Source of the DNA: Bacilli bacterium
GTDB lineage: Bacteria; Bacillota_I; Bacilli_A; ML615J-28; CAG-313
Reading direction: 5' to 3'
NCBI GenBank assembly: GCA_017398545.1
Contig: JAFQFT010000013.1
Location: 5,572 to 69,571 of the forward strand
Length of the DNA stretch: 64,000 nt
Below, one piece after another: positions 6,598 through 37,880 of this stretch (its first letter is position 1; each line of letters starts with the position of its first letter). The notes under the pieces were generated by a model. The model saw only the letters and a program-made list of their open reading frames with translations, ran no database searches and was not told the origin of the DNA. The position numbers and the translations under genes were made by a program.

Positions 6598-7515
6598 TTA
6601 GTAATTAATAGTAGTTAACTTTTCTTGTTTTTCTATATCGTTTTTAACTTGTTTAAAAATAAATCTCAATAACAATGTCAACAACGATAAACCTAATATA
6701 ATTACAAAAATTACATTTCGATTCGATAAATTAAAAAATTTAATAAATAATCTTGGAACAAGTTGATATGCATAAAGTCCAAAACTAAGTGAACCCAAAA
6801 AATTAAATATCGAAAAATTAAATTTCAATAAAAATGTGAAATAAATTAATGATGGATATAAAATGATGAAAGCAAGCTGTATTAATAGTTTATCACCTGA
6901 ATACATCAAAAATAAAATTGTTAAAGAAAATAAAACAAAAACTAATACCCAATTTAAAATTTTATTAATTTTTAGTTTTGGTATATAACCTATTAATACT
7001 CCTAATGGTAACGCTGCTGCACCTCTAACAAACCCAACATGTTCACACCCAAGATTTCTTAAAACAGTAAATATTAATACCCAACATATTAAAAACATAA
7101 TAAAGTGTTTTTCTCTTTTAAAAAATTTTTTTAAAATAATAAGAATTAAACATGTATAAATCATTTGTTTGACATACCATAAGTAACTCCATAAATTAAG
7201 AGTAAGTTCGTCATTCAAAATAAGACTAATTATACAATAAATTATATTAAAAGATATTCCTACAAATAAAGGTAGGCCTAATTTTAATACTTTCTTTTTA
7301 AAGAATAAAATAATTGCTTCTCTAAAATTCATATCATGTACTTTTTCTAAAAATCCGATAAATAAATAACCAGTTAAAATAAAGAAAAATTCAACACAGA
7401 TAAAACCAGATGAAAAGTAAGGACCACCATATATAAACATTGAATGACTTTTTACAACGATTAAAGATAATATAAATCTATATAATTCAATTAAACTATT
7501 TTTCTTCATACTCAA
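6598..7515 (-). CDS. Integral membrane acyltransferase (acyltransferase_3 / OafA-like family)
   Basis: 305 aa and polytopic. The N-terminal LIELYRFILSLIVVKSHS resembles the conserved start of acyltransferase-3 proteins (R...H motif). Confidence 0.5.
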   Translation of the reverse strand: MSMKKNSLIELYRFILSLIVVKSHSMFIYGGPYFSSGFICVEFFFILTGYLFIGFLEKVHDMNFREAIILFFKKKVLKLGLPLFVGISFNIIYCIISLILNDELTLNLWSYLWYVKQMIYTCLILIILKKFFKREKHFIMFLICWVLIFTVLRNLGCEHVGFVRGAAALPLGVLIGYIPKLKINKILNWVLVFVLFSLTILFLMYSGDKLLIQLAFIILYPSLIYFTFLLKFNFSIFNFLGSLSFGLYAYQLVPRLFIKFFNLSNRNVIFVIILGLSLLTLLLRFIFKQVKNDIEKQEKLTTINY

Positions 7516-7521
7516 ATTTTA

Positions 7522-10500
7522 TTAACGCATACCTTCTATTAACATTAGAATTTCTTCACGTGTTATATATCCTTTACCTACGACAATTGATAAATATCGG
7601 CCATTTAATGCAATAAATTCTTCATATGAAACATAGTCTTGCCATTCTTCATATGTATATAATCCATATTGTGCTATATCTGATTCCATTTTCTCTTTAT
7701 CATATTTATAATCATCGCCAAATTCAAAATATGTTAAAAAGCCAGGAATATCTTCAATTGTTAATGTTAAAAAGCCTTCTACAATAACATTATCGTTGCA
7801 AGCACTTCTTAGAGAATAACACGAACTCCATTTGTATTCTGCAATTCCTGAAACCAATTCTACAGTTTCTATTGTTCCTTCTTCTCCTACCACAGCAAAA
7901 TGATGTCCTAAATATTCAACGTAATTTTCATGATTGATAAAAACATATTTATTAAGCGTGGCATCAAAGAAACCATGTTCAGTTACAACATTTAAAGACT
8001 TTCCATTAGAAAATTCAAGCGTAATTACGTTATATAAACCTTCTCCGTGATTCCAAAATAATGAAATAGGCATTGCTTCTATAGTTCCTGTAAATGCATT
8101 CCACGAAAGAACTAAATCACCAGGTTTCAAACTATCAAGTCTTGCATAAGATCCGTCATCAAGAGCAACAAGTGTATCACCAGTAAAACAGCCATTAGTA
8201 GACCAAGTAACAGTATAAGTTATAGTTTGTTTAGTTATATTATCAGTTATTTTTAACCAAGCATTTCCTGTTTTATCATCTTCCTCTTTATAAACTCTTA
8301 AAAACTCACCGTCATATGTCGCTTTTGCTCCTGAATCTGAACCACATTCATATTTATACGAACCAGAACCACCAGATACAGTTACCATTCTTTTTTCTAC
8401 TTCACTTATACTTGAGAAATCATCATCTTCGTAGTTAGTTGTACTATAACCTAAAGGGTTATACCAAGCACTATTAATCACTTGATCAAATTCAGTAACT
8501 TTTGCTACATAAATTTTACTTTCACTTAGTAATTGATCACCACAAGACCAACCTTTAAACGTATAATCATTATTTGGATCATTACTACTCTTATAAGTTG
8601 CTGAATATTCATAAGTTATTATGCAATCATTACAACTTATCGAATTTGCTTTAACAAGTTGAATTGTTGCATTTCCATAAACGCTTCCTGAATAGATAGT
8701 CATTTTACCAGAACCTATAAAATTAAGCTTAGATTCAGCTCCAGATAAATTTATAATATTACCACAGGTAACGGATGGAGAAATTGAACTTTCACCTAAA
8801 ACATTAATAGTTAAATTTATTCCATTAGTATTATATAAAGATATTGCTTCACTTTCATTAGTTATAAAATTAAAGTTATCAAACGTTAATGTAAGATTTT
8901 GTGAACTTGTATAACTACATAAATACATTCTAAAATTTATAAATGTTCTATCTTTATTACCGATAAATATGACTTCTTCTGAATACCCAGCTACTATATC
9001 TATATTGTTATACCTATTGTTTACTACACTTCTATTAGTGTGTTTTGTTAAATCTATTTCTGATTCATGACGCCAATCTATTATTGTTTTTTTATAAAGT
9101 GGATTCCAAGGAGTGCTATCAATAGTATTATATATCATATACGAATCAGTCTTAAGAGTGTTTTCAACAATTGTCCCAGTTGTGACATATTGACTAATTT
9201 CACGTGTGTTTATTTCCCAAATCGCATATAAAGTAATATTCTCTTTAGAAGTTAATCCAGATATATCATCAACATTTGTAAAACAAATTTCACTATCTGG
9301 GTTTAAAGACCAACCTTTAAAGTTCATTCCTTCAATGAAAAATGCATTATTAGTTAAAGTATATGACTTAAAATAATCACAATCTTGCATAGGAGAAATA
9401 TTTCCACCCTTTGAGCCTATATAATTAATTGTATAAGCAAAACTTGGATAGTTTGCTTCAAAATAGATATCATATAAACTTTTAACGTCAAATGAAATAT
9501 TTTCAATTACTTTTTCAAACTTTATATCAAAATACATAAATGAAACTTTAACCTCTGTTACACAACTTTTATTATTACAATTTAAATTAAAAAGTACTGT
9601 ATTATTTCCATTAGCATCAACTAAATTATGAACATCACCATATTCACTATTAATGCTAAATACTAGTGAAAAATCGTGTAAATTATATAAGCTATTTAAC
9701 GTTAAATATTCATCGTTTTCAGCTATCAATTTCCAAATTTCATCAATAGTATAAATTTTATTATTTTCAATGTAATCTAATTTAAAACTAATCTCATCAA
9801 TTTGATTCATTATTAATTGCATTGAATTATTTTTACTATCAATATCATTAGTAAATTTTGTATTCTCACTACAAATTATATCTATATTCTCACAAAAATC
9901 TATTATAAATTTCATATTATCATATGAATAAAAATTTTTAGAATTTTGTAAATATAGAGTCTTTTTCACTGTTGATGTGTTGAAACCTAATTCAGTTAAA
10001 AAGTTTTCGCTCAATAAAGAACCTTGTAAATTTACATTTTGTAACATTAGTTTATTTAATCCTATACAAAGAGAATCTTTTCGTAAATCCATATTTCTAA
10101 GATTCAAATTTTTTAAGCTATTTAATGAAGAAACATTTAAAGAACTTAAGTTAACTTTATCTAATTTTAACGTACTTAAATTGTTTAAACTACTTAATAC
10201 AATATTTTTTACTGTACTATTAATAACTTCTATACTATCAACATTCGAATTCTTGACTAAAATTGAATCAGTATCAATAGAGTTTAGTTTTATATTTTCT
10301 AGTTTATCACCTGAAGTATTACAATCAATAATAGATAAATCTTTAAAATTATATTTAGTGATTTCAAGCCAACCAATTGTACTATTTTCTAATTTTATGG
10401 TATTAAAATCATTAAAATTAATAAGTGACACATCTTTCAATGAAGTAGTTCCTTTAAAAGACATTGAAGTTATCAAATTATTAATATTTTCGTATAATTG

Positions 10501-31430: not shown

Positions 31431-31464
31431 AAAGATACCTCTAAATATAAATCTCTATTTATCT

Positions 31465-31493
31465 ATTATACTATATTTCACAATAAAAATCAA
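31465..31493 (-). promoter_or_regulatory. Sigma-A-type promoter for uppS-cdsA-dxr-rseP
   Basis: The minus strand reads TTGATT (31493-31488), 17 nt, then TATAAT (31470-31465). The ATG is at 31430, preceded by SD AGAGG. Confidence 0.55.
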
Positions 31494-31511
31494 ATCAATA
31501 CCACTAAAAAA

Positions 31512-31540
31512 GAAACCATAAGCACTAAACTTATGGTTTC
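31512..31540 (-). terminator. Rho-independent terminator after the HD-domain gene
   Basis: Perfect 11-bp stem gaaaccataag / cttatggtttc with a 7-nt loop, followed on the minus strand by TTTTTT. Confidence 0.8.
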
Positions 31541-31564
31541 TATTATATATTACAAATATTAACT

Positions 31565-32221
31565 CTAAATTAATTCATGATCATTTATTACAAGTTTAAA
31601 TTCTAATCCAAAAAATGAAGCAGCTTTTTCACATAATTTCATACGTGATAAGAATATTTCAAAATATTCCATAATTGAACAAATACTTGTATCAATTACT
31701 AAATTAAGATTTAAAGTCTTATTATCTTTATCTACAACAACTCTACTTTTAATAGCAGCATAATTAACACGATTATGAATATCAAACTCTAATATTTCTT
31801 TTCTAACTCTACTTCTTCTAACATCAGTTTTATCTGCAATAATAAGTGCAGAAGAAATAATACTTACAGGATATGCAGATGATTCATCATGATTACCAAT
31901 TGCAGATACAATTAACGCAATCTCACTTGTATCCATTCCAAGTTTTTCTAAAATATGAAAAGCCATTAAAGCACCACTTCTAGCATGACCTGCACGATTA
32001 ACAACATTTCCAATATCATGCATATAAGCTGCAATCTTACCTAGTTCAATTATTCTGTCATCATAACCTAAACTTGTAAGTATTTCTTCAACAACAGCAG
32101 CACATCTTAAAACATGCTTAAACGAATGTTCAGTATATCCAATATCAGCTAAATACTTATCAGCTGATTCAATATATGTATTAATTTCTTTATTTTCTTT
32201 TATTTCTTTAAATGTAATCAT
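31565..32221 (-). CDS. HD-domain phosphohydrolase
   Basis: H...HD...D pattern: FKHVLR, YMHDIGN, GNHDE, ADKTD. Confidence 0.7.
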   Translation of the reverse strand: MITFKEIKENKEINTYIESADKYLADIGYTEHSFKHVLRCAAVVEEILTSLGYDDRIIELGKIAAYMHDIGNVVNRAGHARSGALMAFHILEKLGMDTSEIALIVSAIGNHDESSAYPVSIISSALIIADKTDVRRSRVRKEILEFDIHNRVNYAAIKSRVVVDKDNKTLNLNLVIDTSICSIMEYFEIFLSRMKLCEKAASFFGLEFKLVINDHELI

Positions 32222-32251
32222 TTTTTTCTCCTTTAAATTTTTATTACCATT

Positions 32252-33589
32252 TTATAAACAAATTGACATATAATAAGGTAAATATACTATATTATCCTCT
32301 ACTTTAATATCTCCATTATGTAAAACATATAATGTTCCAATTTTTTTATTAAAAATATTTTTAAATTTTAATAGAGATGAAATAGTATAATTATTTGTAG
32401 ACTTAACTTCTATTGGACATACTTTATTATTATGCCTAATTAGAAAATCAATTTCCATTACCGTATTTTTAGATTCTTTATCAGTTTTTTTATAATAATA
32501 TATATTATGACCATTTGCTCTTAAAGCTTGTGCTACAATATTTTCGATAATCATTCCTTCATTAATATGTAGTTTATCAAATAAAATTGCTTCATAAAAT
32601 TCATTTTCTAAATAATCCTTATTTTTATATGCTAAAGATACAAGCAATCCTGTATCCCCCATATAACATTTAAATGATGGGTCTGTAGTTGACAAATTAA
32701 ACGCAACGCTCGGATCACTTACATTTTCTGCAATATTAACTATCATTGCATCATTCAACCATCTTATTGGTTCCTTATACTCACGACGTCTAGCTCCTTC
32801 AATATGAGATAAAACAAATTGTTTATCATGTTTTGAAAGTTCAGAAGGAATATGTAAAAATATATTTTTTACATACACTGGATTCACTTCATTTTGTGTT
32901 TCTATATCATTCTCATATAGGTTTAATATATTTTGTTTTACAAAATCAACTTTACCGAAATCTTTAGATTTTACATATTCTGCAACTGCTTGAGGCATTC
33001 CTCCAACAAGAAGATATTCTCTAAAGCTTTTCATGATATCTTTATTTATTTTTCCAAGTGGTCTTAAATTAGTATAATGTTCTTTAATAATATCTATTGT
33101 AATATCATTATTCATTGCCCACATATATTCTTCAAAATCCATCGGTAATACTTCAATTGTATATTCCTCGGATGGTATCAATATATCTTTACTCTTTTTG
33201 GTTATTGAAGCAAGTGAACCAGTTTCAACATAATCATATCTCTTATCTTCAAGTAAAGTTTTTAGTGCTTTTCTAGCTGCAGGAAATAATTGTATTTCAT
33301 CAAGAATAATTAATGATTCTCTAACATATAACCTAGTTTTATAAAATATTTGTAATTTATTAAAAAAATAATCTAAATCTTCTAATGAATTTATAAACAA
33401 TTCTTTTATCTCATCAGGAGCTTTATCAAATCTTATTTCAATATATGATTTATATTCTTCCCTACCTAACCTTAATGCAAGTGTAGATTTACCAACACGT
33501 CTAGCACCCTTTAAAAACAAAGCATAATCAGGAGCATATTCATTTTTCCATTTAATCATTTTATTATAAACTTTTCTCTTAAACTCCAT
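32252..33589 (-). CDS. AAA-type ATPase with C-terminal PD-(D/E)xK nuclease-like domain (DUF4143-type architecture)
   Basis: Walker A GARRVGKST and Walker B LIILDEIQ. The C-terminal MEIDFLIRHNNKVCPIEVKS fits a D...ExK nuclease motif. Confidence 0.7.
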   Translation of the reverse strand: MEFKRKVYNKMIKWKNEYAPDYALFLKGARRVGKSTLALRLGREEYKSYIEIRFDKAPDEIKELFINSLEDLDYFFNKLQIFYKTRLYVRESLIILDEIQLFPAARKALKTLLEDKRYDYVETGSLASITKKSKDILIPSEEYTIEVLPMDFEEYMWAMNNDITIDIIKEHYTNLRPLGKINKDIMKSFREYLLVGGMPQAVAEYVKSKDFGKVDFVKQNILNLYENDIETQNEVNPVYVKNIFLHIPSELSKHDKQFVLSHIEGARRREYKEPIRWLNDAMIVNIAENVSDPSVAFNLSTTDPSFKCYMGDTGLLVSLAYKNKDYLENEFYEAILFDKLHINEGMIIENIVAQALRANGHNIYYYKKTDKESKNTVMEIDFLIRHNNKVCPIEVKSTNNYTISSLLKFKNIFNKKIGTLYVLHNGDIKVEDNIVYLPYYMSICL

Positions 33590-33631
33590 ATATTTTTTCC
33601 TTTCTCACAATTGCGAAGACTTTACACTCAT

Positions 33632-33660
33632 ATTATATCACAATTGCGAATGATTTTCAA
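33632..33660 (-). promoter_or_regulatory. Promoter P1 of the ATPase-nuclease gene, with an operator copy filling most of the spacer
   Basis: The minus strand reads TTGAAA (33660-33655), 17 nt (atcaTTCGCAATTGTGA), then TATAAT (33637-33632) with an extended TG. A further operator copy lies between the -10 and the SD. Confidence 0.6.
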
Positions 33661-33730
33661 GTATAACATTTCACAATTGCGAAGACATTTTGCGTGTTAT
33701 TTTTCACAATTGCGAAGACTACACACACAT

Positions 33731-33759
33731 ATTTTATCACAATTGCGAAAACATTTCAA
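33731..33759 (-). promoter_or_regulatory. Promoter P2, a duplicate of P1 lying 99 bp upstream
   Basis: The minus strand reads TTGAAA (33759-33754), 17 nt (tgttTTCGCAATTGTGA), then TAAAAT (33736-33731). Confidence 0.5.
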
Positions 33760-33864
33760 GTATGATATTTCACAATTGCGAATAAATTACAAATTTATTA
33801 TATAACAATTTTAATAAATTTATACGTATACAAATTGTTTTAATTATCCAATAGCTATATAAAA

Positions 33865-33890
33865 AGGATAAACCCTTTTGAGTTTATCCT
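33865..33890 (-). terminator. Rho-independent terminator after the 935-aa lipoprotein gene
   Basis: Stem aggataaac / gtttatcct with an 8-nt loop, flanked by A- and T-runs. Confidence 0.7.
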
Positions 33891-33901
33891 TATTTTATAT
33901 A

Positions 33902-36709
33902 TTAAATTGCTTCACAACTTGTAATAATATAAGTATATTGAGTTTGATACCAGTTATAAGAAACTAAAGTAACTTTAACTTGCTTACCATTTAATGCTTC
34001 TAATGGTTGATAATTTTCTTGATAGAATTTAGCATTTGTATAGTTATACATTACAATTTCAGTATCACCAGATGTAATAGAAACTTTTTCGCCTTGAGTA
34101 GTGATATTTAAAGTACCAGTTACATTAGTATAAACTAAACCACCATTTTTAGCAGCTTCACCAGCAAATGCATCAGATGCAACATCTTTTAAACTTGCAT
34201 TTACTTTAAATGCATCTTGAGGAATTACATTACCACTTGATAATACTTCAACAGTACCTTTAGAAATTTGAGGTAAACCATAATAAATATCAATATTACC
34301 TTGAATTCTTACCTTATCACCAACTTCAACAGCAGCAGATGAATAAGATAGGATAGTTGCAGTACCATCAGTTATATAGAAATTCCAAGTACTTGCACCA
34401 CTTGATTTAACAAGTCCACATACGATACCTTCAACAACTACAGTTGGACCGCCTTTAGCAGCTTGATCTCTAAAGTCTTTTAATGAAATAACTGAAGCTT
34501 TAACAACATTAAATGCAATAGTAATATCTTCATTATATTCACCAAGTTTGAAATTAACAACTACTTTAGCATTTTCAGTAGATGTTGGTTCTTTTACATC
34601 AACTGTAAATACACCATTTTCTACTTTTGCAGTAACTTGTGAAGAACTAACTTCTTTAACTGTTAAAGTCGCACCTTCTGGCACATTATAAGTAACAGTA
34701 GCAGCACTTGGATATTCAGCAGCGAATTTTCCTAATAATTCTTCTTTTGCAAATCCAGCAACTAAATGGTCAGGAGTAGGAACAACTTGAAGAACTTCTA
34801 ATACACCAGCTTTCCAAATGAATTCACCACTTGATTTAGCACCAATACGAAGTGTTACATAAGCTTCTACACATAAACCAGCATATTCTGATAACCATGC
34901 ATATTCACCAGGACCAGTTTTATTTGAGTTTTGTGAATAAACGATCATACTTAAAGATGGATCTTCTAAATCATGAATATAATAATTCACATAATTTCCA
35001 CTTGATTTTTCAACATACATTGTTGTTTTATAAACTTTATTAGAAATATTATTATCAGATGGATTATTAACTAATTCAGCCATAGGCATTTCTTCAATCC
35101 ATTCACTTGGAATTTCATTTTCTTGCCAATCTTGATATAATACTTCAGCATTATTTAAACGAATAGAACCTGTATGATTATAATCTTCTCTTGATTGATA
35201 TAAATCACCTAAACCTTCAACGATTACATATTCACCTTTTTTAAGTTTAGTTATATCTGTATTAGCATCAACAGCAGTAGAAATAAATACTGCAATTGAG
35301 GAAGTTTCATCAATTAATTCAAATCCAGCAGGAGTAGTAGCACCTTTCATATATAAGAAACCAACAATGTAACCTTCGATAACAGCTTTTTCACCTACAG
35401 GAACATTTCTTGCTTCTTCAATAGAAATAGTTTCAATTTCAGGTTTTTCAATTCCACATTCAAATGAAACTTCACGTTCATAATTAACACCTTTATACTC
35501 TACATTAATAACAACATTCATAACTACTTTTTCTTCACCGAAGTTTAAAGCAATATTAAATACATCTTCTTTATCAGCAATTACAACACCTTCAGATGTA
35601 GATATATAACTAACCTTAGACCCTTCTAAAATTTCATCAGTTTTTACTAAATCAAAATCACATAATGCAGTATATTTTTCAGCAAATTGTTTTTCTAATC
35701 TATCAAGAGCATATAATGCATAAGTTTCATCACTTACTTCAACTTCATCTAAAATTTGAAGAGGAACAATTCTCCAGAAGTTTCCACTTGCAGATAATTT
35801 ACAGTTTTGAATAGCAATAATACATTCTCTAACTTCACCATCATATTCATTTAACCATTCTAAATCAGCACCATTAGCAGTTGTATAAGCATAATAACTA
35901 TCAACACCATTTAAATCGTTAAAGTAATAATTAACAAATCCATTACCTTGACTTCTATTAATTCTTGCAACAACTTTATAAACATTTGATGTAATATTTT
36001 CAGAAACTGGAATCATACATAAATCAGCAATTGAAGTTTCTTCAACAAAATCAGTATTAATTTCATTTTCTTTACTTACAACTTCACAAGTTGCAGGAAC
36101 AATTTGTCTAGCACCAGTATAACCAGCATATTGAGCTGAAGATGCACTTGATTCATCAATATATTTAGTAAAATGACCAGTAATAATTACTTCATCACCA
36201 GCAACTACTTCTTTTGCATAGTCATATGAATATACATAAATAGCATCAGTATTGTCATATAAATAGAAACCAACAGGAATATTTTTAGTAGTACCATAAA
36301 CAACAAAAGCAACAACACCATTTACATAAACTTCTTGTCCTTCAGCAAATCCTTTTACTTCTTTTAAAGAATCATATTCTTCTGCAAGAACAACAAATTC
36401 ATATACTTTTAAAGTTTGAGCACCATTAAGTTCAAACTTAACAGCAACTTCTACTACTTGATCTTCTCTTTGTCTAACAACAACACCTTCATTAGAAATA
36501 ACTTCAGGTTTTGAAGATTCATATGTAATTTTAACTCCATCAACATTATTAACGAAATCTAAATCTTCAGTAACTTTATCAAATTTAACATCGCAAAAGA
36601 AATTTTCTGCAACTTTTTCTACACTAGCAAAACCAGGAGTACCAATTGTACATGAAGCAACAAAGCATGCACAAATAGTTAAAACTAATACAGTAAATAA
36701 TTTTTTCAT
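33902..36709 (-). CDS. Surface lipoprotein (935 aa) with three OB-fold-like modules and duplicated accessory modules
   Basis: Lipobox CFVASC|T. Three segments follow the pattern G(x)xVxVxGVVxxxxxxxxxGFYLxDxTxAIxVYS...GDxVxIxG, similar to OB domains of extracellular nucleases and DNA-binding proteins. Paralogous modules are NVYKVVARINRSQGNGFVNYYFNDL and NKVYKTTMYVEKSSGNYVNYYIHDL. Confidence 0.55.
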   Translation of the reverse strand: MKKLFTVLVLTICACFVASCTIGTPGFASVEKVAENFFCDVKFDKVTEDLDFVNNVDGVKITYESSKPEVISNEGVVVRQREDQVVEVAVKFELNGAQTLKVYEFVVLAEEYDSLKEVKGFAEGQEVYVNGVVAFVVYGTTKNIPVGFYLYDNTDAIYVYSYDYAKEVVAGDEVIITGHFTKYIDESSASSAQYAGYTGARQIVPATCEVVSKENEINTDFVEETSIADLCMIPVSENITSNVYKVVARINRSQGNGFVNYYFNDLNGVDSYYAYTTANGADLEWLNEYDGEVRECIIAIQNCKLSASGNFWRIVPLQILDEVEVSDETYALYALDRLEKQFAEKYTALCDFDLVKTDEILEGSKVSYISTSEGVVIADKEDVFNIALNFGEEKVVMNVVINVEYKGVNYEREVSFECGIEKPEIETISIEEARNVPVGEKAVIEGYIVGFLYMKGATTPAGFELIDETSSIAVFISTAVDANTDITKLKKGEYVIVEGLGDLYQSREDYNHTGSIRLNNAEVLYQDWQENEIPSEWIEEMPMAELVNNPSDNNISNKVYKTTMYVEKSSGNYVNYYIHDLEDPSLSMIVYSQNSNKTGPGEYAWLSEYAGLCVEAYVTLRIGAKSSGEFIWKAGVLEVLQVVPTPDHLVAGFAKEELLGKFAAEYPSAATVTYNVPEGATLTVKEVSSSQVTAKVENGVFTVDVKEPTSTENAKVVVNFKLGEYNEDITIAFNVVKASVISLKDFRDQAAKGGPTVVVEGIVCGLVKSSGASTWNFYITDGTATILSYSSAAVEVGDKVRIQGNIDIYYGLPQISKGTVEVLSSGNVIPQDAFKVNASLKDVASDAFAGEAAKNGGLVYTNVTGTLNITTQGEKVSITSGDTEIVMYNYTNAKFYQENYQPLEALNGKQVKVTLVSYNWYQTQYTYIITSCEAI

Positions 36710-36812
36710 ACTTTTCTTCCTTTTCTTAATAATTATTTTTAGGGGGAGAATAATCTCACTTATATTATACTATTTTTAAATTTTTTTTACCATCTATTAA
36801 CACAAAAAAACA

Positions 36813-36836
36813 AACGTATCATTTAACTGATACGTT
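36813..36836 (-). terminator. Rho-independent terminator after the paralog pair
   Basis: Stem aacgtatca / tgatacgtt with a 6-nt loop, followed on the minus strand by TGTTTTTTTG. Confidence 0.75.
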
Positions 36837-37289
36837 TTATAACTTTTTAATAATAACAGCAACTTGATTTTTTTCATCAAGTCCTGCAATTACTGTTTCT
36901 CCTATTACATTATCTAATAGAGTTTCTTTATTTATGCAATAACCACCATAAATACTAATCGTATTAAAAGTTTTAATTTCTTCATTTATTATAAAATTAA
37001 CCACTAAACCACTAGCATAAGATACTCCATTAGAATGAGTTTTTTCAATTTTAACCTCTTGAATATATTTTAGATTAACATTTTTATAATAATTATATTT
37101 AACAAAAGCATAAATAAATATAATAATAAATGGACATAGTATTGCAAAAAAACAAATCCAGAAAATCCATAATTCCATTCCCTCACTAAACACACATCCA
37201 AGCATTGCTAAAAGACTTACTGCTAATGCAATACTACTAATTACTGTTAATCTCACTTGTGATTTATAATAAATTGCATTATGATTCAT
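36837..37289 (-). CDS. Small two-TM membrane protein, paralog B
   Basis: Start moved to the ATG at 37289 (MNHNAIYYK...), with SD GGAGA, 1 nt after the paralog A stop. It shares NHNxIYYK...YY(K)(K/N)V(E/N)LKYIQEVK(L/I)EK with paralog A. Confidence 0.7.
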   Translation of the reverse strand: MNHNAIYYKSQVRLTVISSIALAVSLLAMLGCVFSEGMELWIFWICFFAILCPFIIIFIYAFVKYNYYKNVNLKYIQEVKIEKTHSNGVSYASGLVVNFIINEEIKTFNTISIYGGYCINKETLLDNVIGETVIAGLDEKNQVAVIIKKL

Positions 37290-37290
37290 A

Positions 37291-37767
37291 TTATTCTCCA
37301 CAAAAATCGTTATTAGATATCTTTTCAATAATTACACAAACTTCATTAATTTCATCATAACCTACTTTTACAGTTTCTCCGACATATTCATCAATTTGAA
37401 AATATAAAAGAGCATTCCATCCACTTCGATATAGCGCAAGAGTCTCAACATTTTTCATTTCTCCGTTAATATTCATCTTAATTAAAAAGCTACTGCAATG
37501 ATTAAATCCGGGTGTAAGTTTTTCTAATTTAACTTCTTGAATATATTTAAGTTCTACTTTTTTATAGTACCAATATTTATATAAATAATAAATTGTCATG
37601 CATAAAAATGGACAAAGAACTAAAACAATATATAATCCAAGATATTCTTTATCTCCATCTTCAGTAAAAATTAAGACTAATAATGGTGAAAATAATAGTA
37701 ACATAAGTATTGACATAGCAATACTAAATATTAAATTTCTTTTATAATAAATTACATTATGATTCAT
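37291..37767 (-). CDS. Small two-TM membrane protein, paralog A
   Basis: Start moved to the ATG at 37767 (MNHNVIYYK...), with SD AGAGGTG. The ORF-track start is a GTG lying inside that SD. Confidence 0.7.
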   Translation of the reverse strand: MNHNVIYYKRNLIFSIAMSILMLLLFSPLLVLIFTEDGDKEYLGLYIVLVLCPFLCMTIYYLYKYWYYKKVELKYIQEVKLEKLTPGFNHCSSFLIKMNINGEMKNVETLALYRSGWNALLYFQIDEYVGETVKVGYDEINEVCVIIEKISNNDFCGE

Positions 37768-37788
37768 TAAAAACACCTCTTTTGAATT

Positions 37789-37817
37789 ATTATATCAATT
37801 AAATAGGAAAAAGTAAA
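37789..37817 (-). promoter_or_regulatory. Candidate promoter for the paralog pair
   Basis: The minus strand reads TTTACT, 17 nt, then TATAAT preceded by TGa (extended -10). It lies directly after the frr terminator. Confidence 0.4.
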
Positions 37818-37842
37818 TATTCTATTTGAAAAAAAATAAAAA

Positions 37843-37865
37843 CCCTCTACCTTTGTAGTAGAGGG
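37843..37865 (-). terminator. Rho-independent terminator after frr
   Basis: Stem ccctctac / gtagaggg, followed on the minus strand by TTTTTATTTTTTTT. Confidence 0.8.
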
Positions 37866-37880
37866 TATTTAAATTCAATA

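Follow-up and report, generated by a model that had tools for sequence, protein, structure and literature searches.

Six identical short sites, evenly spaced, precede an ATPase-nuclease gene in a gut bacterium of 25% GC, whose relatives are MAGs labelled Bacilli or "Mollicutes", and they raise the question of which protein reads them and what this reading does to the gene. In the window, by which we mean the whole stretch of 64,000 nucleotides that was analysed, the gene lies on the minus strand (32252..33589) in a chromosomal accessory insert between frr and uppS, the order being pyrH-frr, then two small membrane proteins, an OB-fold lipoprotein, the ATPase and an HD-domain protein, then uppS-cdsA-dxr. 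A preliminary description of the region had proposed a dimeric HTH-type repressor as the binder, had noted that no regulator gene is adjacent, and had mentioned in passing the ATPase itself as a possible binder. The lack of an adjacent regulator agrees with both neighbours, since the gene upstream encodes the OB-fold lipoprotein and the one downstream the HD-domain protein. Upstream, the ATPase control region extends as far as the intrinsic terminator of the lipoprotein gene (33864..33891, minus strand).

The predicted protein has 445 residues and is assigned by Pfam and PADLOC profile matches to the AAA_14-DUF4143 ATPase-nucleases, PADLOC PDC-S01. Both Pfam domains scored above their gathering thresholds (AAA_14 79.8 bits against a cut-off of 27, DUF4143 81.9 bits against 28.1), the PDC-S01 profile PDLC04786 matched residues 1-444 of 445 with an E-value of 2.1e-101, and the C-terminus, NERD/PD-(D/E)xK-like, gave a weak NERD nuclease match. 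Walker A reads GARRVGKST and Walker B ILDEIQ, and the PD-(D/E)xK residues are D381, E394 and K396; these three, together with G28, K34, D97 and E98, were invariant in an alignment of 19 sequences. An AlphaFold2 model built from 19 homologues (mean pLDDT 85.7) predicts an AAA+ core (1-160), a helical lid (162-230), a winged helix at about 235-312, with a helix-turn-helix and a beta-hairpin wing, which is the least confident region (pLDDT 50-85), and a PD-(D/E)xK domain (313-445). The best PDB matches of this model in Foldseek were ORC/Cdc6 subunits, clamp loaders and CED-4, at TM-scores of 0.21-0.42; they have the AAA+-lid(-winged-helix) order in common with the model, and archaeal Orc1-DNA complexes were among the top ones. 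No solved structure matched by sequence with either a protein or a profile query. According to a published account (PMC12988326), PDC-S01, an ATPase fused to a PD-(D/E)xK domain, ranks fourth in abundance among prokaryotic defence candidates, its status being that of a candidate without experimental validation. The papers that we found on DUF4143, COG1373 and PDC-S01 gave no function and made no mention of upstream repeats, DNA sequence specificity or autoregulation, and we found no published description of phased repeat arrays at DUF4143 genes.

Upstream of the gene, TCACAATTGCGAA starts at 33605, 33638, 33671, 33704, 33737 and 33770 with 0 mismatches and a step of exactly 33 bp. When up to 2 mismatches were allowed, the window held 9 matches, all of them within the array, as against 1.93 +/- 1.42 in shuffled sequences, of which 0 of 100 reached 9. 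On the gene strand the word reads TTCGCAATTGTGA, and its six copies are arranged head-to-tail from -193 to -16 relative to the ATG. Tandem Repeats Finder reported a period of 33 (6.2 copies) and one of 99 (1.8 copies, 86% matches), and the core is self-complementary at 10 of 12 positions, centred on CAATTG. Hence the exact phase, the 99-bp higher-order duplication and the near-palindromic appearance that the preliminary description had reported are all confirmed.

A promoter scan with a sigma-70-type consensus predicted a proximal promoter, P1 (33632..33660, minus strand), in which TTGAAA (33660-33655) is followed after 17 nt by TATAAT (33637-33632), with a TG and a consensus match of 11/12, and a distal promoter, P2 (33731..33759, minus strand), in which TTGAAA (33759-33754) is followed after 17 nt by TAAAAT (33736-33731), again with a TG, and a match of 10/12; P2 is a duplicate of P1, 99 bp upstream. 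All cores are read on the minus strand. Core 1 (33605..33617) belongs to the 5' UTR: it follows the P1 -10 and is directly abutted on its other side by the Shine-Dalgarno sequence GAAAGGA (33598..33604, minus strand). Among orthologues, the start of the copy nearest the gene is always 24-30 nt ahead of the ATG. Core 2 (33638..33650) occupies 13 of the 17 spacer positions of P1, its 3' TG serving as the extended -10 TG, core 3 (33671..33683) is directly upstream of the P1 -35, and core 4 (33704..33716) is located between the P2 -10 and the -35 unit of P1. Core 5 (33737..33749) has the corresponding place in P2, where it again takes up 13 of 17 spacer positions, and core 6 (33770..33782) forms the distal end of the array. 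Beyond it, a possible decayed seventh unit, ATTAAAATTGTTA (33803..33815, minus strand), is in phase with 8/13 matches and is followed by TATAAT. The preliminary description had correctly placed operator copies in both promoter spacers and a further one between the P1 -10 and the Shine-Dalgarno sequence, and it had rightly dismissed a plus-strand open reading frame (33611..33805) as a by-product of the repeat, as its translation consists of ISQLR-type repeats.

Three contigs from other samples have the lipoprotein context in common with the window and allow the array to be compared across strains, as had been proposed, with four or six copies as the outcome. In two of them the encoded protein is 99% identical and the array has six copies, while the third, L076, encodes a 98%-identical protein, carries four copies, is exactly 66 bp shorter and has P1 only. 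In L076 the first copy joins the upstream flank of core 6 to a spacer of the unit-4 type, which is the junction that a core-to-core deletion of 66 bp would leave, and core 5 has no separate counterpart there. Of the two promoters claimed earlier, both were found by the scan; P2, however, is dispensable to judge by this strain. Between the window and the 99%-identical strain, substitutions hit 0 of 66 core positions and 13 of 125 spacer positions (Fisher p=0.005), compared with 23 of 1338 in the gene and 2 of 127 in the flank upstream of the array. Spacer substitutions thus accumulate at several times the rate of the neighbouring DNA, and part of them resemble the outcome of conversion among units. 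This pattern of substitutions shows purifying selection on the array sites. Because the cores are invariant while the spacers drift, within the array, between strains and among orthologues down to 58% identity, comparative evidence supports the view that the sites behave as selected protein-binding sites on promoters, the binding itself being putative.

Next, we asked where else the word occurs. A search of the own assembly (1.83 Mb, 88% complete) with at most 1 mismatch found the word nowhere outside the array, with the exception of one 1-mismatch match on contig C68, a chance match within the coding region of a lipoprotein signal peptide. The genome-wide search by which the preliminary description had hoped to define a regulon therefore revealed none, the array being the only place in the genome where the word stands. 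Its claim was to fall if the motif were absent elsewhere and also bound by no protein; absence elsewhere, one half of this, is what we observed, yet it is also what a private self-operator would be expected to give.

Outside this genome, the word precedes orthologues of the ATPase at about 40 loci in other genomes and metagenomes, where the proteins are 58-99% identical, the phase is 33 bp and the copy number ranges from 1 to 6. All eight orthologues in other genomes (70-91% identical) have CGCAATTGTGA upstream at a 33-bp phase in 1, 3 or 5 copies, the single copy being that of orthologue L016. A scan of metagenome contigs with DNA alone, using the pattern CGCAATTGTGA-N22-CGCAATTGTGA, returned 21 loci, at 15 of which an ATPase homologue begins 24-60 nt past the last copy; 14 of these homologues are 58-91% identical to the window protein and the remaining one, at 46%, is L037, to which we return below. 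Among the other pattern loci, two end at a contig edge with a gene start visible and three precede a frameshifted or truncated remnant. Two loci, L026 and L035, have a further array on the 3' side of an unknown gene that adjoins the ATPase and runs on the reverse strand; the two arrays of L035 are 836 bp apart. The HD-domain, lipoprotein, UppS and TM neighbours did not recur in the orthologous loci, and clustering of all flanking ORFs left the ATPase as the sole common gene, so that a conserved partner gene was rejected. A phage or plasmid origin was rejected as well: the two-copy CGCAATTGTGA pattern had no match in viral contigs, and the closest homologues in plasmids and phage collections are at most 48% identical.

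The word and its phase are kept even in GC-rich and Bacteroidota-like contexts that lack TTGAAA and TATAAT. Over 88 units the conserved block is (T/G)CGCAATTGTG(A/G)(A/T)A, the central nine positions being biased by the seed used to find units, and the remainder of the unit is free. The centre of the word differs in two orthologues, one with CGCATTTGTG (81% identity) and one with CGCAAATGTG (69%), from which it follows that AATT in the middle is less important than the flanking CGCA and TGTG. These comparisons show that the array is inherited and transferred together with the ATPase gene and is private to its lineage. The feature is real, selected and gene-private.

We also looked at the rest of the family. 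Three paralogues in the own genome, 30-34% identical, were examined: that on C33 has TTAGAAAAACCGAT at -99, -66 and -33, that on C37 has TATTGAAAAAGAGGRCA at -106 and -73, and that on C10, which belongs to a different subfamily, has paired palindromes. In 21 related genomes, with 0-17 family copies per genome, members with the N-terminal type of the window protein have 2-4 copies of a gene-specific word of 13-25 bp at a 32-33 bp phase, a second subfamily (with a GPKWCGKT Walker A) has 3-4 copies at 23 bp, and a third mostly lacks obvious arrays. A search of 400 genomes of the class yielded 106 distinct homologues in Bacilli genomes. With an array defined as at least 2 copies matching at 13/14 positions or more with a period of 32-34 bp, phased words were present at 84 of the 106 homologues, 68 of these 84 at 33 bp and with three copies as the mode; the six copies of the window are the maximum. 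As a background, an exact 12-mer recurring at 32-34 bp was found upstream of 24/28 homologues but only 2/1052 ORFs of the own genome, and both of the latter are DUF4143 genes; in these counts relatives are not independent, though words differ between clades.

Homologues that are 44-50% identical have words other than that of the window. In many clades the word ends in YGTG and its promoter-proximal copy abuts the -10 hexamer, and therefore the site would occupy the promoter spacer across clades. The same design was found in two cultured strains, at V3C14_RS19145 of Agathobacter rectalis DFI.5.28 (four copies of AAAATGCGATTTTGTGGTAAA) and at LK433_RS14125 of Segatella copri DSM 18205 (three copies of CGTCAAAACGTGAGAAATAG), where the whole array is downstream of an apparent promoter motif. 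Words of sister clades are non-palindromic and stand in the same head-to-tail arrays. Taken over the sampled homologues, these sequence comparisons show that phasing at 32-34 bp with lineage-specific words is general for the subfamily of the window ATPase. A separate observation concerns contig C1, on which a similar array with a 23-bp phase precedes a non-ATPase, amidase-like gene, the assembly containing no matching ATPase; arrays can thus exist without a cis-encoded ATPase.

Which protein, then, binds the array? Of the options considered, the aside that it could be the ATPase is the best supported, and it rests on four indirect lines of evidence. Where the neighbourhoods are unrelated, nothing but the array together with its gene is conserved; the word changes from paralogue to paralogue at a constant phase; a winged helix is predicted in the protein; and homologues that keep the word conserve this winged helix better than the lid and the nuclease. 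In the same-word homologue L021 it is 66% conserved, compared with 44% for the lid and 49% for the nuclease, whereas in different-word homologues (44-50% identical) it is the least conserved region, at about 39% vs 45%. Residues that are invariant in the same-word clade and rare elsewhere number 12.5 per 100 aa in the winged helix and 10.1 in the AAA core, and include H262 and A296-F297-N298 of the wing loop; this enrichment is weak and not significant (p=0.10), and we take it as suggestive only. Likewise only suggestive is an association of residue 262 with the word, in that closer clades combine His262 with TGTG-ending words and Ser/Ala262 with CGTG-ending ones, as it involves 2-3 lineages and has exceptions in distant clades.

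Locus L037 had the look of a natural domain swap, with a window-type array joined to a foreign C-terminal half that includes a foreign winged helix, and at first sight it spoke against self-recognition. Each half, however, is 100% identical to an abundant gut sequence, the join is exact and falls at a common PMDFEEF stretch, and the C-terminal donor, P0192 (Waltera sp.), has an array of its own, ATTGAAWAAACGGGGCRA, in its native loci. We set this case aside, since L037 is probably an assembly chimera and for this reason uninformative.

Based on these observations we propose that the six sites probably form a self-operator array private to the ATPase gene, by means of which the protein represses its own expression. 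Each 33-bp unit carries (T/G)CGCAATTGTG(A), and the ancestral unit may have been a complete promoter, made up of TTGAAA, a 17-nt spacer containing the word, TATAAT and 4 further nt; duplication of a three-unit module in the window would then have given rise to two promoters and six words. The ATPase, with its AAA+ core, lid, winged helix and PD-(D/E)xK nuclease, would most likely bind the polar words head-to-tail, and its occupancy of the -35/-10 spacers and of the 5' UTR beside the Shine-Dalgarno sequence would block RNA polymerase, keeping the level of its own, potentially toxic, ATPase-nuclease low. The positions of the cores, between the predicted -35 and -10 and over the 5' UTR, fit repression, and the copy number (1-6) may tune its strength. 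A step of 33 bp would correspond to three turns at 11 bp per turn, and the 23 bp of the sister subfamily to two turns at 11.5, which suggests that the fixed steps reflect the geometry of an oligomer on slightly underwound DNA.

Self-repression need not be the main role of such binding. It could be that the ATPase binds the array chiefly as an iteron- or ORB-like docking platform for AAA+ polymerisation, which would license or restrain the nuclease or would sense foreign DNA by titration, with regulation as a side effect. The predicted AAA+-lid-winged-helix architecture, which is ORC/Cdc6- and STAND-like, would fit such a platform, and the strict, clade-independent phase (33 bp, or 23 bp in the sister subfamily) combined with differing words points to oligomer geometry; moreover, up to six copies are beyond the need of promoter occlusion, and L035 has its second array at a distance of 836 bp. 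Against this, the arrays always lie within ~200 bp upstream, overlapping the core promoter or the 5' UTR, one copy is enough in orthologue L016, and there are no copies elsewhere in the genome, so that we judge a primary docking role unlikely. An extension of the same idea to the whole family, which we offer as a speculation with a small chance of being right, would see the PDC-S01 proteins as ORC- or iteron-style sequence-specific AAA+ nucleases, each paralogue of which polymerises head-to-tail on its private 33-bp-phased address beside its own gene; the filament would be a self-repressed resting immune sensor, expression and nuclease activity alike would be set free when infection disturbs it (through titration, DNA damage or a change in the nucleotide pool), and the six-copy array would be an expanded docking platform.

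In the reading that the preliminary description had preferred, the near-palindromic sites centred on CAATTG would be bound by a different protein, a repressor acting in trans from another locus, for instance a dimeric HTH protein. The 10/12 palindromic core suits this reading, promoter spacers are a usual place for the operators of classical repressors, and the orphan array on C1 before a non-ATPase gene indicates that arrays can act without an adjacent ATPase. However, no regulator gene is adjacent here or in about 30 orthologous loci with unrelated neighbourhoods, the genome has no occurrence of the word outside the array, and the word follows the gene into MAGs and contigs of different labels and GC contents. 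With up to 17 paralogues per genome and a private word for each of those examined, an equal number of unlinked repressors would be needed. Furthermore, sister clades build the same head-to-tail arrays from words that are no palindromes, and the core always keeps its G/T asymmetry, so that the window word probably looks palindromic only incidentally. Measured against what defines a classical dimeric HTH repressor, the locus has no linked regulator and the genome no other site, and we consider this reading quite unlikely and the dimeric interpretation of the palindrome not upheld.

It might also be argued that no protein reads the word, and that slippage made a tandem duplication of a promoter in which the word was kept by recency or gene conversion. 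Such an origin would account for an ancestral 33-bp unit equal to one full promoter plus 4 nt, as in L014 and L015, for copy numbers that differ among strains and for spacers with conversion-like changes that diverge faster than the flanks. But the word stays invariant while the spacers diverge, down to 58% protein identity and even where sigma-70 hexamers are lacking; the copy next to the Shine-Dalgarno sequence keeps the word though it has no promoter hexamers; and unrelated words at the same phase recur at 84/106 homologues. Duplication without a reader is accordingly very improbable.

Finally, action of the repeats as RNA, in a 5'-UTR element or a small RNA, merits hardly any credence, for although core 1 is always transcribed and the Segatella copri array lies wholly downstream of an apparent promoter motif, a search of Rfam, by which we ruled out an RNA element, found nothing near threshold, CGCAAUUGUG is incapable of folding on itself, and most copies are upstream of the proximal promoter.

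The self-operator reading would have consequences beyond this locus. Copies of PDC-S01 are reported to number in the tens of thousands, and we counted as many as 17 paralogues in a 2-Mb genome of our sample; if the reading is true, the family consists of AAA+ proteins that bind DNA sequence-specifically, and a target is predicted for each of them. The window would be among the clearest substrates on which to study them, as it offers six identical cores, two textbook promoters, natural alleles with four and six copies, and a word that is kept to 58% identity.

How does the array compare with known systems? The control region of the Ss-LrpB gene of Sulfolobus solfataricus contains three boxes at regular intervals, to which Ss-LrpB itself binds (PMC1802622). 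The window array resembles it as an autoregulatory operator-array design, but Ss-LrpB is a small Lrp-type HTH dimer acting on true palindromes, whereas the presumed binder here is a 445-aa AAA+ ATPase-nuclease, the repeats are direct and polar, and the words differ between paralogues. Plasmid iterons, such as those of P1 RepA, R6K pi, pPS10 RepA and RK2 TrfA, are head-to-tail repeats at a fixed phase beside the gene of their binder; their Rep initiators autorepress, their words are lineage-specific and their period is about 22 bp. The window array is likewise head-to-tail at a fixed phase next to the gene of its presumed binder, but its period is 33 bp and the locus is chromosomal, with a GC skew that is monotonic across the window and no replicon context. 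No Rep fold, Rep-like gene, DnaA boxes or unwinding element was seen at the window locus, and a plasmid iteron/Rep origin was rejected on the pyrH-frr and uppS-cdsA-dxr context of the insert, the lack of a Rep-like gene and the monotonic skew.

Repeated boxes directly upstream of an initiator gene are also known for Orc1/Cdc6, with its origin recognition boxes, and for DnaA, with its DnaA boxes. The AAA+-lid-winged-helix order of Orc1/Cdc6 is predicted by the AlphaFold2 model for the window protein too, and Foldseek lists ORC/Cdc6 chains first; however, TM-scores do not exceed 0.42, the winged helix has a pLDDT of 50-85, and sequence homology is not detectable. Unlike both Orc1/Cdc6 and DnaA, the window protein has an extra C-terminal nuclease and many paralogues per genome, and nothing suggests an origin function. 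The window system lacks both a replicon context and sequence homology to these proteins, and is not a member of the Ss-LrpB, iteron/Rep, ORB or DnaA families. It belongs with PDC-S01 (AAA_14 + DUF4143; COG1373), the full-length models and both Pfam domains of which the gene matches, and to published accounts of which the upstream array and its gene-private word are an addition. Within our sample, an operator-array design is characteristic of one PDC-S01 subfamily, and the window array is, by its putative operators, the most expanded example of it.

The AAA_14-DUF4143 ATPase-nuclease gene (window 32252-33589, minus strand) is part of a five-gene accessory insert (region window 31431-37880), which breaks the conserved frr-uppS linkage; Pfam matches bear out the identities of the genes flanking this insert, namely pyrH, frr, uppS, cdsA and dxr. 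When the region containing the upstream array (window 33590-33800) was compared with the corresponding strain locus L074, the spacers between the conserved word copies differed at 10% of positions, while the ATPase gene differed at 1.7% and the upstream flank at 1.6%. Because some of the spacer substitutions bring one unit closer to another unit, the sequence comparison suggests that gene conversion has taken place within the array.

Besides the window ATPase, the same genome (GCA_017398545.1) encodes four DUF4143 paralogues, each on a different contig. Those on C33 (16909-18210, plus strand) and C37 (32451-33719, minus strand) each carry a private word at 33-bp phase. The paralogue on C10 (~7030-8230, minus strand), a member of the GVRRSGKT subfamily, has two TTTTGTCAG-N9-CTGACAAAA palindromes instead of phased words, and that on C70 (281-1582, minus strand) has weak AAAAAGTC repeats only. 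In two loci from other sources, L013 and L017, the orthologue is followed directly downstream by a second DUF4143 paralogue, forming a tandem gene pair. On contig C18 of the own genome, a minus-strand gene for a 532-aa membrane protein is preceded by two copies of a composite repeat (GGTGGAGTCTGTCAAATATAACGGGTGGAGTCTATC) with ~85 bp between them; this repeat is unrelated to the ATPase arrays.

The metagenomic locus L035 (Ga0310696_10504991) contains two CGCAATTGTGA arrays of two copies each (nt 86-130 and 922-966), lying in like orientation 836 bp apart, with a reverse-strand 229-aa ORF between them and an ATPase homologue immediately downstream; L026 likewise has a second array, positioned 3' of a reverse-strand gene that neighbours the ATPase. 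Two further contigs, from activated-sludge and other metagenomes (L025 and L039), have kept a two-copy array although the ATPase gene behind it survives as a remnant with a frameshift, and in L031 the array is kept while the C-terminal nuclease fragment alone remains, ~250 bp downstream. In the contig L037 (OGOM01011619.1), one ATPase gene contributes its array and its initial ~440 nt, and the rest comes from another paralogue, a very abundant one from Waltera sp. Both parts match their respective sources at 100% identity and the join falls at a PMDFEEF-coding stretch common to both; L037 is either a chimera produced during assembly or the product of very recent recombination.

Outside the window, contig C1 of the own genome carries at ~nt 150-270 four copies of a AATATTGGTCAGTT-like word at 23-bp phase; an amidase_2-like gene (372 aa) has this array directly on its promoter. 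No ATPase of the GPKWCGKT subfamily was found in the own-genome assembly, which is 88% complete. The C1 array may be an orphan, either a relic or a target in trans, and its word is of the same family as that in the GPKWCGKT-subfamily arrays of relatives (L056 and L066).
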